This document shows positions 4,895 through 54,411 of a stretch of 64,000 nt of DNA, in pieces (the first letter of the stretch is position 1; every line of letters begins with the position of its first letter). The position numbers and the translations under genes are program-made. Below the pieces are notes generated by a model that was given only the letters and a program-made list of their open reading frames with translations, ran no database searches and had not been told where the DNA came from. The stretch is from contig CAZETJ010000002.1 in the NCBI GenBank assembly GCA_964514575.1, positions 1,391 through 65,390 of the forward strand, given 5' to 3'. This stretch comes from an uncultured Candidatus Saccharibacteria bacterium. GTDB taxonomy: Bacteria; Patescibacteriota; Saccharimonadia; Saccharimonadales; UBA10212.

Positions 4895-5473
4895 TCAGGT
4901 GAGCTTGATCGAGCTGAAGAACTTCGTGGCGAAGGCCGGCTTGGTCTTGCGTGGACCGGGGTAGTAGCCGGCGTGGATGTAGTAGACCTCGCCCCGGTGC
5001 CAGACCGTGTATCCGATGTAGCCGTACAGGTCGTTGAACTTCGCGGCCAGGTTGCCGTCGAACGTAGTTCGCGTCGGGTTCGTGACGCCGCCGTTGATGG
5101 CGGTTAGCGCCTGCCACGGATCCGAGTACTTGCTCTTGAACACGTCGATCGCATAGAACTCCTGCTGGCACCCGGAGGCGATTACTGCCTCGCACGGTTT
5201 GCCAGTCTTGACGTTGCGACCAACACCGGAGCTCCAGTCATCGGACTTCCTGGTCGCCGAAGTCGCGCCGTCGAAGACGCTGTGCCCGTAGCTGAACTTC
5301 ATTCCGGTGATGTACGGGAAGTCAGCGCAGAAGTGCGCCGTGCTGATGCAGTGGTGATGCCACGTCACTTGAGGTGACATGCTGTTCTTGAAGTTCGCGC
5401 TGGAGCTCGTCGCTGCGCTGATGAGCGCGATGACGGTCGCCAGGCAGGCAAACAAGCAGATGCGGCGGAGCAT
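4895..5473 (-). CDS. Secreted cysteine-containing protein, 192 aa, on high-GC island 1
   Basis: GGAGGGAG SD 5 nt before the ATG. Signal peptide MLRRICLFACLATVIALISAATSSSA. Strong G/C preference at third codon positions, unlike neighbouring genes. Family not recognised. Confidence 0.75.
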   Translation of the reverse strand: MLRRICLFACLATVIALISAATSSSANFKNSMSPQVTWHHHCISTAHFCADFPYITGMKFSYGHSVFDGATSATRKSDDWSSGVGRNVKTGKPCEAVIASGCQQEFYAIDVFKSKYSDPWQALTAINGGVTNPTRTTFDGNLAAKFNDLYGYIGYTVWHRGEVYYIHAGYYPGPRKTKPAFATKFFSSIKLT

Positions 5474-9607: not shown

Positions 9608-10195
9608 CTAAGGGGTTGTAGCTGCGGCGTTAGAGCTGGTTGTGCTACTGGTCTGGCTACAGTTAGGTCCGTTTGGATTCTGCTGGATAAACTGTTTGAT
9701 AGCCGTAACAACCTTGCCATTGTCCTGCAGGTTCTCCCAGAAAGCGACCTGATTGCGGTTGATGACCATCTCGTCATATGGCGAGTGTAACTGCTGACAG
9801 CCGAGCTTGGTTAGCTGCGGATTAGCGGCAGTGCCGGTCGATGTTTGGTCGGTCGTCAGATAATAGACGTCTTTGAGGATCACATACTTGTCATTCAAGC
9901 GTGTGATGTGTCCAAAATAAGTAGTGTAAGCTACCGATCCGGAAGTACTACCGCCGTTAAGGAAAACAGCTTGATATTTATCCGTCTTGACTTGGCCGGC
10001 CTCGGAATAACCGATACTACCGTTAGACCAGATTGACCACCCAATTACTATTAAAAGCACTAGAGCCACCAGGAAAGTGAATATGAACCACTCAATCCTT
10101 ACAGCTCGGGCCTCCCAGTCGAAGTGCTTGCGGCGAGACTTTTGCTGGACAGGAGTCCCTGCGGACTGATCCTGACCACGTGACATAAACTCCAT
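9608..10195 (-). CDS. Hypothetical membrane-anchored protein, 195 aa
   Basis: AGGTGGA SD. Single TM (WFIFTFLVALVLLIVIGWSIW) followed by an extracytoplasmic domain. Confidence 0.6.
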   Translation of the reverse strand: MEFMSRGQDQSAGTPVQQKSRRKHFDWEARAVRIEWFIFTFLVALVLLIVIGWSIWSNGSIGYSEAGQVKTDKYQAVFLNGGSTSGSVAYTTYFGHITRLNDKYVILKDVYYLTTDQTSTGTAANPQLTKLGCQQLHSPYDEMVINRNQVAFWENLQDNGKVVTAIKQFIQQNPNGPNCSQTSSTTSSNAAATTP

Positions 10196-13270: not shown

Positions 13271-13471
13271 TCAGTACGGCTCGGGGAATATGAGGCGCTC
13301 GATCGCCCAGAAGAAAGCGGCGATCAACACGCCGACGATGAGTGTGCACCAGCCGACCCAGAAGGTTCCGGTCGAGTTGCTGACGTTGTAGGCCGAGCAC
13401 ACCATTGCTGCCAAAGCGCACCACACCATGGCGGCGCAGGCTCCAGCTGCGGCGGCTACGATCCACCTCAT
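13271..13471 (-). CDS. Small 2-TM membrane protein, 66 aa (island 2, gene 2)
   Basis: The ATG overlaps the upstream stop (ATGA). Sequence MRWIVAAAAGACAAMVWCALAAMVCSAY...WCTLIVGVLIAAFFWAI. Confidence 0.6.
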   Translation of the reverse strand: MRWIVAAAAGACAAMVWCALAAMVCSAYNVSNSTGTFWVGWCTLIVGVLIAAFFWAIERLIFPEPY

Positions 13472-13665
13472 GTCATGCTCCTTTTTCGGCCTTGGTTGCG
13501 GCCTGAGCGCCATACGGCGAAGATCATGCCCCAGATGGCGCCCGGTAAGCCCGCTTCGAATGCTGTCCACGCATCGTGGCCGTCGCCTAGAACGACTAGA
13601 ACTGCCGTTGGTATGAGCATCAATACCAACCACGTGTAGGCGAACCACTCCCATCTCTTGTCCAT
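13468..13665 (-). CDS. Small 2-TM membrane protein, 65 aa (island 2, gene 1)
   Basis: GGGAGA SD 5 nt before the ATG. Sequence MDKRWEWFAYTWLVLMLIPTAVLVVLG...AIWGMIFAVW. Confidence 0.6.
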   Translation of the reverse strand: MDKRWEWFAYTWLVLMLIPTAVLVVLGDGHDAWTAFEAGLPGAIWGMIFAVWRSGRNQGRKRSMT

Positions 13666-32775: not shown

Positions 32776-33264
32776 TCACTTGCCCCGGTCGAGATAGCTG
32801 TAGGTGCTGATCGTGTTGGAGGGGTATCCCTCCACGAAGGCCTCGGCCTGGACCTCGAAGATCCACGAGTCATCGACCCCGGAAGAAGGACCCGGGGGCG
32901 TCAGGACGTCGTAACGAATCTTCGGGATCGTCTGCCATGCCTGGAGCGTGTAGTGCAACGTGCGCACATTCCACGGTCCGTTCGACGAGCTCGAATCCCA
33001 GGACGTGAACTCCACGGTGACGTGCTGGACCTGCGCAGAGCGTGAGCTCAGTGAGAACAGATAGGTCATGTGGCCGTTCCAGACGTAGTACGACGCCGGC
33101 GAGAAGTTCGCATTCCAGCCAAGGACGGCTGGCTGCGGGTAGTGCGCGTCCGCTGGTGCGGCCTTGGCAATCGCTGCGAGAGCGAGTGCTCCGAGGCAGA
33201 AGACGAAGATCACGCAGCCCAGCGCAAAGATACGCTTGGGCCCTTGCGGGATAATCCTAGACAC
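32776..33264 (-). CDS. Secreted protein, about 162 aa, on high-GC island 3
   Basis: GTG start with AAAGGA 7 nt upstream. Signal peptide ...FALGCVIFVFCLGALALAAIAKAAPADA. Strong G/C third positions. Family not recognised. Confidence 0.7.
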   Translation of the reverse strand: MSRIIPQGPKRIFALGCVIFVFCLGALALAAIAKAAPADAHYPQPAVLGWNANFSPASYYVWNGHMTYLFSLSSRSAQVQHVTVEFTSWDSSSSNGPWNVRTLHYTLQAWQTIPKIRYDVLTPPGPSSGVDDSWIFEVQAEAFVEGYPSNTISTYSYLDRGK

Positions 33265-33403
33265 GGAAGTGTCCTTTCGACGGGGGAATGATAGCAAATG
33301 AGGTGCTCCGGCGAGGGAGCGGGCCACAAAAGTGGCGCATCACCCCACAGGATTCGAATATTTTAGCATAAACGTTATAAAAAAGCAACTCCCAGGCTGT
33401 GTT

Positions 33404-38571: not shown

Positions 38572-38646
38572 CGCGGGGTGGAGCAGTAGTAGCTCGCATG
38601 GCTCATAACCATGAGGTCGCAGGTGCAAATCCTGCCCCCGCTACCA
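38572..38646 (+). tRNA. Initiator tRNA-fMet (CAU)
   Basis: CGCGGGGTGGAGCAG start with an unpaired 1:72 position (C:U). CCA encoded. Confidence 0.88.
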
Positions 38647-38797: not shown

Positions 38798-38822
38798 GGT
38801 GCAAATCCTGCCCCCGCTACCA
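38798..38822 (+). repeat. 25-nt exact direct repeat of the tRNA-fMet 3' end (GGTGCAAATCCTGCCCCCGCTACCA)
   Basis: Identical to 38622-38646. Confidence 0.9.
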
Positions 38823-51601: not shown

Positions 51602-52123
51602 TTACGTTGCCGGAGCCGCAGCGAATTCTGGCGCGTCGGCCGTCACTTCCGTGTCTCGTACCAGTATGTAGCTGTCCGTTACTTCCAGTATCTGCGTTCT
51701 GTCTATAATCAGAGTGCTTTGGGTGGCTAGAATTTTGGTTACCGGCCGGGCGACATAAAGTTTTTGAACAAACATGCCTTCGTTATAACTGTAGTCATTG
51801 ATCTTGCCGAGTTTACTGCGCTTGGTCCTGACGGTTTTGCCAAGTAAGTCAAATTTAATATCTAAAATTTCGCGATGGCGGACAAGGTCCGAGGGCGAAC
51901 TTAGTACGTCTTCATCGTTGACGGCTAGGCCTTCGCTGGAAGCTTGGCGGATATCTTCAATCAGCAGGATTTTTGGTTCCGGGTGGCCGGACTCTTTGCA
52001 CCACCAGCCTAAAATCTTAAGATTGTGCGGGTTAATCACCGGAGTTTTGGCAATGGCTATCGCCCCGCCCAAACGCAGGCTGACAACCGGCTGGTTCATC
52101 AATGTGGCGCTTAATCTAAGCAT
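51602..52123 (-). CDS. PRC-barrel domain protein (two repeats)
   Basis: The LMNQPVVSLRLGGAIAIAKTPVINPHNLKILGWW pattern is repeated. Confidence 0.5.
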   Translation of the reverse strand: MLRLSATLMNQPVVSLRLGGAIAIAKTPVINPHNLKILGWWCKESGHPEPKILLIEDIRQASSEGLAVNDEDVLSSPSDLVRHREILDIKFDLLGKTVRTKRSKLGKINDYSYNEGMFVQKLYVARPVTKILATQSTLIIDRTQILEVTDSYILVRDTEVTADAPEFAAAPAT

Positions 52124-52184
52124 AAGTACAGTTTATTACTTTTGATGGCAAAAGTAATGCAAAACCACCGGGCGGCTAGCTCGC

Positions 52185-52355
52185 TTGACGCAAGCTCAAA
52201 GTCAAAAATACGAACCGCCTGCGGAACTCGCTAGCGCTCAAACAGTCCTCGGCTTTATGGTTGATATTTTTGACGATCTTGCTCGGGCTCGTCAGATGCC
52301 CGGACTCATTAGTCAAGCATTGAGCTCGATTGAAAAGAAACCACGATTATGTTAA
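52185..52355 (+). repeat. Segment Y: paralog of 12800-12935, possibly a decayed gene end
   Basis: See the feature at 12800. Conceptual peptide ...MVDIFDDLARARQMPGLISQALSSIEKKPRLC. Confidence 0.35.
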
Positions 52356-52435
52356 AGTATTAATCTATTCACAAGGCTTTAAACAGTTTTGGAATCGTAC
52401 ATGGAGCTCAAAGCTCCCCGAACTAGGAAAGGTGG

Positions 52436-52930
52436 ATGTTTGCAATGGTCGACTATGACGCGTTGCAGAGAATCGTGCGCTTAACGCACGCCGACCCGCT
52501 GACACAGGCGATCGCCATGTTCATCCTCGGCGGAAAGACCGGCGATCGTCGAGATGCCGTGCTCGATGCAGCTATGACGGGGCTCACCTCAGACGACGTA
52601 CGCACCATGTTCGGCGACAGGGTCAGGATGGAGCTCCTGCTCAACAAGGATCTTGATCGCCTAGAGGACGACGACCCATGCCAATGGGCTCGCCTGATCA
52701 AGGCCGATGGGCGCGGAAACCCGCATGACAGCGCGTTCTACCAGCTGTCGCCGTTCAGGGGGAAGCGCATTGCCTTCTTCACCTACGGAGACCAGGTCGA
52801 CGTGCTTCTTCGTGGCTCGGTGTACAACGGGGACCTCCCTGGCACGGATTTCCTCCTGGTCATCGACGCGAACGCGCCCTTCAAGGACGCGGAGGTGCAC
52901 TCCCTGAGCCAGCTTTCCGCCGTCGAGTAG
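52436..52930 (+). CDS. Cytoplasmic protein, 164 aa, on high-GC island 4
   Basis: GGAAAGGTGG SD. No signal peptide. Strong G/C third positions. Family not recognised. Confidence 0.7.
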   Translation: MFAMVDYDALQRIVRLTHADPLTQAIAMFILGGKTGDRRDAVLDAAMTGLTSDDVRTMFGDRVRMELLLNKDLDRLEDDDPCQWARLIKADGRGNPHDSAFYQLSPFRGKRIAFFTYGDQVDVLLRGSVYNGDLPGTDFLLVIDANAPFKDAEVHSLSQLSAVE

Positions 52931-52956
52931 TACACGGATCCACTAGTTCGCACATT

Positions 52957-52987
52957 GCGGGAGCGACGACAACTTCGTCGCTCCCGC
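52957..52987 (+). terminator. Perfect hairpin GCGGGAGCGACGA caact TCGTCGCTCCCGC
   Basis: 13-bp stem followed by CTCAACACTTTATAAAC. Confidence 0.75.
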
Positions 52988-53049
52988 CTCAACACTTTAT
53001 AAACGTAAGCACTTGCTTTAGCGATTTATCAGGATAATAATTCAGAAAA

Positions 53050-54411
53050 ATGAGGCAAACCCTGGCGAAGCTGTCGGTGGTGTTATTAATCCTGGGTTTT
53101 GCTCTTATTCCGACCGTCGTAAAGGCCACTTTCGCGGCTGCCGACCTAACTATCATAAGCTTCAAAATGACCGGCTCGGAGTCGATTGTGCTAGAGAATA
53201 CCAGCGGCGCCAGTCTTAATCTGCAGAACTATATACTTGAGTATTTCAACAAATCTTCCGGTATCAATTTCAACGTACCCACAGACAGCCAACAGTTGCC
53301 AAATTTTATACTGCAGCCACAACAATCCTTCTTGCTTAGCGGCGATACGGTAGCAACATGCGGGGCTACCGGAGAGTCTAATCTTTCAATAAGCCTAAGC
53401 GACACGAATGGCTACTTTGAGGTAATAAAGGTCGGCGGCAGTGGCCCGACCGTGACCTATACGCCGCAGGATCATGTGAGTTGGACTTCGTCCTCAGCTC
53501 CGACACCGCCGACTACAGACGGCATAGACCTCCATTCTGTCGGCTCGACATCAGGTAGCATAAATAGCGCGAACTCAATCTATTACAGACAGCTTTCCGA
53601 CGGCAGCTGGCAGAGAGCGGCTATAGACGCTACGCCCTGCAACCTTTTTGTGAGTATGATCGCCGGCGGCGGGACAACCTATGTGGATTGGGCGGAGGGT
53701 TCTGCTGCTCCAGCTATGATACTGGCTGCTAGCGCCGATACTGGCATACCAACCAGCGACTTAGGACTGGCCGCACCGCAGATTACAGAACTTTTGCCAA
53801 ACCCGGCCAGCCCACAGAGCGATGATGAGGATGAGTTTATCGAACTTTATAACTCAAACGCCGTAGCATTTGATCTCTCTGGTTTTAAATTGCAGGTTGG
53901 GTCGACCACTAAACATACCTATACGATCTCGGACGGTACAATAATTGAGCCTAAAGCATTTAAAGCCTTCTTCTCGGTAGATACCAATTTGGCGATGAGC
54001 AATACCAGTGGCCAAGCCGCACTGTTGGATCCTCTTGGCAATGTTATGAGTCAATCGGATCCTTACGGCAGCGCTAAAGACGGGCAGTCGTGGGCTTTGG
54101 CTAATGGCAAATGGTATTGGACTACCACCCCAACACCAAACGCCGCCAATCAAGTGAGCGGCGCGACAACTGCTAGTAGCTCGTCTAGCAAAACCAGCGG
54201 TACAACCAAAAGTGTTTCGACCCAAAGCTCTACTGGCGCCACTAATGCCGCCAATAATTCTTTACCTGCAACACCTCTGCACGCATGGACGCTTGCCGGG
54301 GTCGGTGGAGCCGCGCTACTATATGCTGGCTATGAGTACAGAACTGACTTGGCAAACAATATCTACCGGCTCCGGCGATACTACGAGGCTAGGCGAGCTC
54401 CTCGGAAGTAA
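53050..54411 (+). CDS. Secreted lamin-tail-domain (LTD) protein with a C-terminal TM anchor
   Basis: Signal peptide. ITELLPNPASPQSDDEDEFIELYN LTD motif. Ser/Thr-rich linker and WTLAGVGGAALLYAGY. Confidence 0.7.
   Translation: MRQTLAKLSVVLLILGFALIPTVVKATFAAADLTIISFKMTGSESIVLENTSGASLNLQNYILEYFNKSSGINFNVPTDSQQLPNFILQPQQSFLLSGDTVATCGATGESNLSISLSDTNGYFEVIKVGGSGPTVTYTPQDHVSWTSSSAPTPPTTDGIDLHSVGSTSGSINSANSIYYRQLSDGSWQRAAIDATPCNLFVSMIAGGGTTYVDWAEGSAAPAMILAASADTGIPTSDLGLAAPQITELLPNPASPQSDDEDEFIELYNSNAVAFDLSGFKLQVGSTTKHTYTISDGTIIEPKAFKAFFSVDTNLAMSNTSGQAALLDPLGNVMSQSDPYGSAKDGQSWALANGKWYWTTTPTPNAANQVSGATTASSSSSKTSGTTKSVSTQSSTGATNAANNSLPATPLHAWTLAGVGGAALLYAGYEYRTDLANNIYRLRRYYEARRAPRK

Follow-up and report, generated by a model that had tools for sequence, protein, structure and literature searches.

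The DNA considered here is a stretch of 64,000 nt, referred to throughout as the window, from contig CAZETJ010000002.1 of an uncultured Candidatus Saccharibacteria bacterium (assembly GCA_964514575.1). Its host is a member of the Saccharimonadales (Candidate Phyla Radiation, TM7) with a small genome and of rhizosphere type. In the window, between two divergently transcribed core genes, p173 and LTD, lies a GC-rich island that carries a single open reading frame (ORF) of 164 amino acids (aa). In sister lineages the same position is occupied by other genes, enclosed by the same conserved flanks. The position is referred to below as the slot, the genes it holds as its cargo and the three lineages as A (that of the window), B and C. 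The features of the locus are collected in Table 1.

Table 1. Features of the slot, the core genes on either side of it and the other high-GC islands of the window (window coordinates)
Feature	Position	Strand	Description
Module U, strain-A spacer	52124..52346		223 nt; replaces an unrelated 67-nt spacer of strains B and C
Predicted cargo promoter	52330..52358	+	TTGAAA, 17 nt, extended -10 TGtTAAAGT; from a consensus scan
Module P, conserved 5' flank	52347..52428	+	-10 region, leader of ~70 nt and Shine-Dalgarno; ends in GAACTAGGA
Cargo coding sequence	52436..52930	+	164 aa; orphan, soluble, acidic
Module T, conserved 3' flank	52942..52995	+	From ACTAGT (from GGATCCACTAGT when A and B alone are compared); holds the terminator hairpin
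Native spacer with LTD promoter	52996..53049	+	TTTATAAAC, GTAAGCACTTGC (-35 region), GATAAT/TAATAA (-10 region)
p173	51602..52123	-	173-aa conserved Saccharimonadales hypothetical protein; left core gene, transcribed away from the slot
LTD	53050..54411	+	453-aa lamin-tail-domain (LTD) surface protein, Pfam LTD E = 9e-20; right core gene
High-GC island 1	4895-5473	-	192-aa secreted protein
High-GC island 2	13271-13665	-	Two or three small transmembrane (TM) ORFs
High-GC island 3	32776-33327	-	Protein of ~170-183 aa with an N-terminal hydrophobic segment; start codon uncertain

The 164-aa coding sequence

The ORF starts with ATG and stops with TAG, and gene callers on public contigs report it either as 164 aa or, from the ATG at 52445, as 161 aa. 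Its G+C content is 0.61 against a window mean of 0.494, and 52401-53025 is one of about 12 stretches of the window with at least 58% G+C, peaking at 62% (300-nt sliding window over the 64 kb). The length of the ORF is not significant in such GC-rich DNA, as it was reached in 57 of 1000 dinucleotide shuffles. Its codon-position G+C is 0.648/0.388/0.794, a spread of 0.406, where the same shuffles gave 0.066 +/- 0.035 with a maximum of 0.212. Intermediate first, low second and high third positions are what a true gene of a GC-rich genome shows in its sense frame, and on this ground the ORF is accepted as coding. It is a genuine protein-coding gene, and the periodicity is strong evidence for this frame.

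The initial annotation, made from the letters alone, had described an island of foreign composition, made up of one gene with a Shine-Dalgarno sequence and a terminator of its own, G/C-biased third positions and a cytoplasmic, acidic, Asp-rich product. This description stands. The third-position G+C of 0.794 compares with 0.53-0.57 in recA, recX, p173, LTD and rny; a hydropathy scan of the protein revealed no TM segment or signal peptide (maximum 19-residue Kyte-Doolittle mean of 1.13); the isoelectric point is 4.78, and 22 of the 164 residues are Asp.

Alternative cargo in sister lineages

Three loci were found in which p173 is about 89% identical in aa sequence to that of the window and the spacer to LTD is about 1 kb in each. 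In lineage A (the window and its own contigs) the cargo is the one soluble acidic protein; in lineage B (contigs L016/L017, L045-47 and L060-61) it consists of two small multi-TM ORFs of 135 and 120 aa; in lineage C (L018 and L050-59) of two other small membrane proteins, of 128 and 102 aa. The lineages co-occur in metagenome samples from JGI (Ga02653xx) and ENA (ERZ272453xx-456xx). The initial annotation, which dealt with the window only, had not seen this alternative cargo. All three cargos are alike in composition, with 61-63% G+C and a third-position G+C of 0.79-0.88. Between B and C the first proteins share 31% identity (E = 2e-14) and the second ones are unrelated; no other kinship could be detected among the cargos, the 164-aa protein included.

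The three cargos are flanked by the same promoter, leader and Shine-Dalgarno sequence on one side and by the same terminator on the other. The 5' junctions of A, B and C lie no more than 2 nt apart and their 3' junctions no more than 8 nt. Exact copies of the three junction types are found in 22, 11 and 8 contigs that were assembled independently, so the junctions are not an artefact of assembly. A and B further share GGATCC at the 3' junction, where it is part of the coding sequence in B but not in A. The 12-mer GGATCCACTAGT that results (52936-52947) contains a BamHI and a SpeI site and also occurs in common cloning polylinkers; it is natural, since it occurs in many independent environmental assemblies, and it could trip vector-contamination filters.

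Table 2. Nucleotide identity between lineages in and around the slot
Region	A-B	A-C	B-C
p173	81%	81%	91%
5' flank	91%	80%	89%
Cargo (no alignable similarity)	49%	48%	57%
Terminator through first 77 nt of LTD	90%	95%	95%
Rest of LTD	77%	76%	96%

The identities are distributed unevenly along the locus (Table 2). The flanks that touch the cargo are 80-95% identical between A and B or C, and 60 consecutive bases of module P are identical between A and B, whereas p173 and most of LTD are only 76-81% identical. B and C, with LTD genes that are 96% identical, have cargo DNA that cannot be aligned. The variants in the flanks are mosaic, those in the 5' flank being shared by A and B, those in the spacer after the terminator by A and C and those in the hairpin loop by B and C. 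Three further contigs are of mixed or interrupted type: L005 is identical to A up to 53066 and continues with an LTD of B/C type, L010 has the A cargo next to a p173-proximal spacer of B type, and L037 ends at 52431, 3 nt beyond the 5' junction. All three fit recombination in the flanks and the co-existence of variants in one sample. With the same core pair, three types of cargo and an empty site in at least nine distant relatives, the locus is a hotspot of horizontal gene transfer (HGT), or flexible genomic islet.

An insertion between two core genes

The gene order in the window is recA, a gene for a 151-aa membrane protein, recX, p173 (minus strand), the island, LTD, tsaE, tsaB and rny, the gene for RNase Y. 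Within about 6 kb on each side, the range covered by all the searches for neighbouring genes reported here, the Pfam matches are RuvB, bPH_2, RecA, RecX, LTD, TsaE, TsaD-like, RNase Y and HAD. The p173 protein has 591 homologues at E<=1e-40, the named ones being from Saccharimonadales. A scan with p173 of one genome per GTDB species gave five metagenome-assembled genomes of Saccharimonadales/Saccharibacteria, and a scan of metagenomes gave 15 further loci. The order recA-TM-recX-p173 / LTD-tsaE-tsaB-rny is kept in all loci long enough to show it.

In relatives with a p173 of 45-73% aa identity the spacer between the start codons of p173 and LTD measures about 65-250 nt; in the window it measures 926 nt. 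At least nine of these relatives lack the slot in an otherwise unchanged gene order. The difference in length within a conserved order identifies the island as an insertion between the divergently transcribed core genes, which supports the initial annotation in treating it as an island. Its right edge can be placed at about 52988-52995, because the stretch from TTTATAAAC to GTAAGCACTTGC that follows the hairpin matches the sequence upstream of LTD in relatives with an empty spacer. The ‘aagcacttgc’ of the -35 region and the AT-rich stretch before it are also present in relatives without the insertion. As these have TTTAATTAAC or TTTAAAC in the place of TTTATAAAC, the latter is probably native sequence upstream of the LTD promoter.

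The spacer of a 66%-identity relative, seen in contigs L011 (about 9750-9998) and L019 (same sequence), contains a different GC-rich insert of about 170 nt, bounded by the perfect 13-nt inverted repeat GCGACTCACACGC...GCGTGTGAGTCGC. This is an independent insertion into the same spacer, possibly of a kind resembling miniature inverted-repeat transposable elements.

Predicted expression signals of the slot

The 5' flank contains TTGGAATCGTACATGGAGC...CCCCGAACTAGGA and the 3' flank ACTAGTYCGCACATTGCGGGAGCGACG. Both hexamers of the predicted cargo promoter and their spacing are kept in the sister lineages, as TTGATA..TAAAGT in B and TTGATA..TAAAAT in C; its consensus match and its conservation suggest that it functions as the promoter of the cargo. 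The leader in module P contains a small hairpin, GGAGC...GCTCC, at 52403-52417. The cargo starts at 52429, directly after this module, and CCCCGAACTAGGA(G) is the source of a Shine-Dalgarno sequence 5-7 nt before the start codon in each lineage. The GGAAAGGTGG put forward as Shine-Dalgarno sequence in the initial annotation is present, but comparison with the sister strains suggests that the working one is the AGGA(G) of the conserved flank, at 52425-52428.

The terminator hairpin noted at the same time is as described: GCGGGAGCGACGA-caact-TCGTCGCTCCCGC, with 52957-52969 paired with 52975-52987 in 13 perfect pairs, an energy of -27.4 kcal/mol and z = -6.8, followed by CTCAACACTTTATAAAC. The top pair of the stem is A-U in lineage A and C-G in B and C, both sides having changed with the pairing kept. 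The parallel drawn with island 1 also holds, a comparable hairpin of 14 bp being followed there by CACACACAACTTTTATAAAAC.

Upstream of these signals, module U folds on both strands as a long imperfect hairpin (z = -3.05 on the plus and -3.35 on the minus strand), and a perfect 10-bp AT hairpin lies at 52135-52158, 11 nt from the start of p173. Rfam has no family in 52050-53100, its only matches across the window being tRNAs. Module U may serve as a leader of p173, or it may be a small insertion. The region before the gene was rightly called non-coding: in 52124-52435 there is no convincing ORF, the sole candidate being one of 56 aa with a TTG start and a third-position G+C of 0.37. The ‘segment Y’ that was also placed there could not be identified in a comparison of the window with itself, which found no repeat of the upstream or downstream regions elsewhere in the window; the flanks are therefore specific to the locus.

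Homology and possible function of the 164-aa protein

The 164-aa protein is an orphan with no detectable relative. A word-indexed search across 5.8 billion clusters returned no protein other than the query. An exhaustive phmmer search of 1.84 billion representatives found the protein itself and two long tandem-repeat proteins, P0002 and P0003, which are chance matches, as their E-values sum 6-8 weak repeat matches. No match was found in GTDB genomes, in IMG/VR, by tblastn against phages and plasmids, or in NCBIfam, PHROGs and PADLOC. A PDB match to protein A domain constructs was disregarded, being isolated and confined to 30 residues (E = 8e-4). Single-sequence AlphaFold2 models reach a pLDDT (predicted local distance difference test) of 37 for the full length and of 50 for residues 1-82, too low for a fold search; as far as secondary structure alone is concerned, these low-confidence models contain four N-terminal helices, an acidic linker and a beta-rich C-terminal half.

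The initial annotation had speculated that the protein is of immunity or antitoxin type. The lone hint in this direction is a sub-threshold match to Pfam CdiI_3 (PF18616), with E = 0.003 and 17.9 bits against a cut-off of 28, which spans 38 residues, 42-79, corresponding to profile positions 24-61 of 95. Membership of CdiI_3 is indicated neither by score, since the gathering threshold is not reached over most of the 95-position profile, nor by context, since the neighbouring Pfam list contains no toxin domain and the adjacent genes are p173, which has no Pfam match, and LTD. The same list contains no toxin, CdiA, Rhs or secretion-system gene adjoining the ORF. The gene does not form part of a type II antitoxin operon, being monocistronic with its own predicted promoter and terminator, and no antitoxin family in Pfam, NCBIfam or PADLOC matches its product. 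The speculation is not supported, and PADLOC, PHROGs, NCBIfam and PDB contributed nothing to it. A locus at which a small acidic soluble protein alternates with pairs of small membrane proteins would fit immunity, exclusion or surface-interaction factors, and the 164-aa protein may, as a tentative guess, act in strain-specific interaction or protection, for example as an orphan protein of immunity type. What we commit to is the description of the locus as a cassette slot and not any biochemical activity of this protein.

Composition and the other high-GC islands

The relative synonymous codon usage (RSCU) of the 164-aa gene correlates at 0.71-0.84 with that of island 1, island 3 and the B and C cargos, but only at 0.20-0.30 with that of three sets of native genes, which correlate with each other at 0.74-0.79. 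Taking all cargo genes together, islands 1 and 3 included, the correlations are 0.71-0.89 among themselves and 0.20-0.50 with native genes. This shared usage places the islands in one foreign compositional class. Actinobacteria are known hosts of cultivated Saccharibacteria (PMC10633639), and as known, GC-rich hosts they or their mobile elements would be the natural suspects as source of the cargo, a suggestion reached by inference only.

Islands 1-3 each have an AT-rich, extended -10-like promoter and a long leader with a small hairpin of GAGC/GCUC type, and a strong hairpin terminator follows islands 1 and 3, the two that were folded. The motif TATGNTAAARTAT was considered as a common promoter element upstream of island 3 and of the slot and rejected, its two occurrences against 0.49 expected being reached in 13% of shuffles. 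The island 1 protein is confined to strain-A contigs. Homology searches with other cargo proteins gave weak hints at best. Lineage B's 135-aa protein is an orphan too; weak matches were obtained for the first ORF of island 2, to DUF6611 (E = 0.0017), and for the 120-aa protein of B, to phrog_1298, a ‘minor tail protein’ (E = 2.4e-5). Searches of phages by tblastn found no match to the proteins of islands 1 and 3 or to the 120-aa protein of B, and those of plasmids none to the island 1 protein.

Interpretation

The explanation that we favour, and consider probable to a moderate degree, is that the 164-aa gene is an orphan accessory gene, gained by horizontal transfer, in an expression slot that varies among strains and whose contents are exchanged by recombination through the conserved flanks. 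The gene would be the current cargo of the slot between p173 and LTD, from which it would receive an extended -10 promoter of native style, a leader (about 70 nt) that includes a small hairpin and the Shine-Dalgarno sequence, and a strong GC-rich hairpin terminator. Cargo alleles would pass between lineages by uptake of DNA and homologous recombination in the flanks. Such exchange would account for flanks that are more similar from one lineage to another than the genes next to them. The window encodes both ComEC (Pfam Competence, E = 2e-39) and RecA, and cultivated Saccharibacteria import DNA via ComEC and, where the flanks are homologous, insert cassettes of promoter, gene and terminator into intergenic positions (PMC10633639). 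With the two proteins in the window and this precedent, exchange of slot alleles by transformation is plausible.

Several points weigh against this explanation. Homologous exchange accounts for the movement of alleles but not for the first arrival of unrelated ORFs at near-identical junctions. The conservation of the flanks could in part reflect constraint on the p173 and LTD promoters and on the LTD signal peptide rather than recombination, and L005 and L010 could be products of chimeric assembly at stretches of 60-76 nt that are identical. As no donor or homologue was found, the case for foreign origin is made from composition and from the empty sites of relatives. No difference exists between the copies of the A cargo (100% identity), so they yield no evidence from the ratio of nonsynonymous to synonymous substitution for the 164-aa ORF. 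The guess at its function has the sub-threshold CdiI_3 match as its single backing.

That the ORF is non-functional, either a chance ORF in inert foreign GC-rich DNA or the product of an assembly chimera, we regard as very improbable. Its length is unremarkable at 61% G+C, its product has no homologue anywhere searched and the A cargo offers no variation in which selection could be measured; against this, the codon-position G+C pattern lies about 10 standard deviations beyond the shuffles, and the ORF starts 7 nt after the conserved Shine-Dalgarno sequence and stops 26 nt before a hairpin that is kept in all three lineages. An assembly chimera as the origin of the island is ruled out by identical junctions in more than 20 contigs from many independent assemblies. 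An unlikely, though less remote, explanation is that the protein is an orphan immunity protein or antitoxin directed against a toxin of the host or of a competitor, the membrane proteins of B and C being in that case immunity factors against membrane-acting toxins. The small size, solubility and acidity of the protein and its weak resemblance to CdiI_3 speak for it, as do the small multi-TM proteins in the sister slots, which are a frequent type of immunity to pore-forming toxins. The strain variability and skewed G+C of the locus also recall the orphan immunity arrays termed rAID-1 (10.1101/471110). The shortness and low score of the CdiI_3 match, the missing toxin, CdiA, Rhs or secretion-system neighbour, the blank results from PADLOC, NCBIfam and PDB and the unusable models all count against it, and without homologues no profile can be built.

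The remaining alternative, which we consider improbable, concerns how the cargo enters: the slot, perhaps together with the other three islands, would be a dedicated expression slot at which foreign ORFs are captured site-specifically, at the short palindromic core GAACTAG|ACTAGTTC, in the manner of an integron with no integrase nearby. Merging the GAACTAG at the end of the 5' flank with the ACTAGTTC at the start of the 3' flank, on the ACTAG that they share, gives the palindrome GAACTAGTTC, itself the core of a palindrome of 16-22 bp that is abundant in the window (ACTTAACTAGTTAAGT, nine times against 0.2 expected). Three unrelated cargos with junctions within 2-8 nt, ACTAG at both junctions and a last island 2 ORF that also ends in GACTAGTT would be accounted for in this way. 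ACTAGT, however, occurs 16 times in the window against 15.6 expected, and ACTAG every 1.3 kb, so that the match, found post hoc, may be due to chance; CTAG and ACTAGT were rejected as special junction signals because their frequencies are ordinary. The 3' junction differs among the types, with six further bases, GGATCC, shared by A and B, and the motif is absent from islands 1 and 3. Within about 6 kb on either side no gene for a transposase or for a recombinase of the tyrosine or serine type is seen, and no empty slot (…CCCCGAACTAGTTCGCACATTGCGGG… / …CCCCGAACTAGTTCGCAC…) was present among the loci compared. The terminator hairpin, a perfect 13-bp stem free of bulges, is not attC-like, with neither RYYYAAC nor GTTRRRY beside it.

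Other repeats in the window

The palindrome (AAT)ACTTAAC[T/A]AGTTAAGT(ATT) has its nine 16-bp cores at 112, 5736, 7751, 12876, 36910, 51506, 51556, 54963 and 63719, and contains stop codons in all six frames. Some copies are at convergent gene ends, two of them between recX and p173, and at least one (5736) is within a coding region. The same palindrome is present in relatives (L016-18, L022, L026 and L030). It could be a bidirectional terminator, an operator or a sequence of DNA-uptake type.

An exact 25-nt direct repeat of a tRNA 3' end (GGTGCAAATCCTGCCCCCGCTACCA) is found at 38622-38646 and 38798-38822, the second copy being 176 nt downstream of tRNA-Met (38572-38646). It could be a duplicated tRNA 3' fragment of the type left by integration at a tRNA gene.

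Comparison with known systems

No description of such islands in Saccharibacteria was found in the literature. Among the closest counterparts of the slot are HGT hotspots and flexible genomic islets of the replacement type, in which variable genes of atypical composition lie between two core genes and differ among close strains, with a turnover attributed to homologous recombination in the flanks, as is proposed here. The slot differs from HGT hotspots in holding only one or two genes and in having conserved flanks that reach the Shine-Dalgarno sequence and the stop codon, so that the promoter, leader, Shine-Dalgarno sequence and terminator are supplied by the resident locus. It also differs in that its known cargos are all orphans with one shared foreign codon usage and that its host is an episymbiont of the Candidate Phyla Radiation with a very small genome.

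Phage morons are independent promoter-gene-terminator units inserted between two genes (PMC3594210). Like them, the slot is a single unit of atypical composition between unrelated genes, present in some genomes and absent from others, its promoter being known as a consensus match only. In the slot, however, the promoter and terminator stay and the ORF changes, and the setting is not a prophage, the neighbours being recA, recX, tsaE, tsaB and rny. No phage or viral match to the slot was obtained with PHROGs, phage tblastn or IMG/VR.

With integron cassettes and with rAID-1, the recombinase-associated arrays of orphan immunity genes with skewed G+C in Bacteroidales (10.1101/471110), the slot shares promoter-proximal, unrelated small ORFs of skewed G+C and short conserved boundaries that include a hairpin. 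Unlike these, it has no integrase or XerD-like recombinase (no integrase appears in the neighbouring Pfam list) and no attC core sites, it is a single slot and not an array, and its flanks are specific to the locus and unrepeated elsewhere in the window. The cassettes inserted into Saccharibacteria in the laboratory are of the same build, a promoter, ORF and terminator in an intergenic spacer, delivered by ComEC-dependent uptake and homologous flanks (PMC10633639). Those insertions were engineered, whereas a natural equivalent at the slot is what the population data would suggest.

Implications for Saccharibacteria

Saccharibacteria are epibionts that live attached to other bacteria; their genomes measure about 1 Mb. 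At the slot, co-occurring lineages differ only in one or two orphan genes, alike in their foreign codon usage and placed under the same conserved predicted promoter, leader and terminator, which makes it a tangible candidate, open to experiment, for functions in strain-specific interaction or protection. A flow of genes from high-GC organisms into these epibionts is indicated as well. Should site-specific capture prove to be the mechanism after all, the slot would be a new kind of gene-capture device, integron-like with no recognisable integrase, by which a tiny genome is given a rotating set of host-derived genes, the ORFs coming, for example, from the high-GC host of the epibiont or from the mobile elements of that host. 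As a naturally tolerated site at which foreign genes are apparently expressed, to judge from the signals around them, the slot could also serve new genetic tools in this phylum (PMC10633639).

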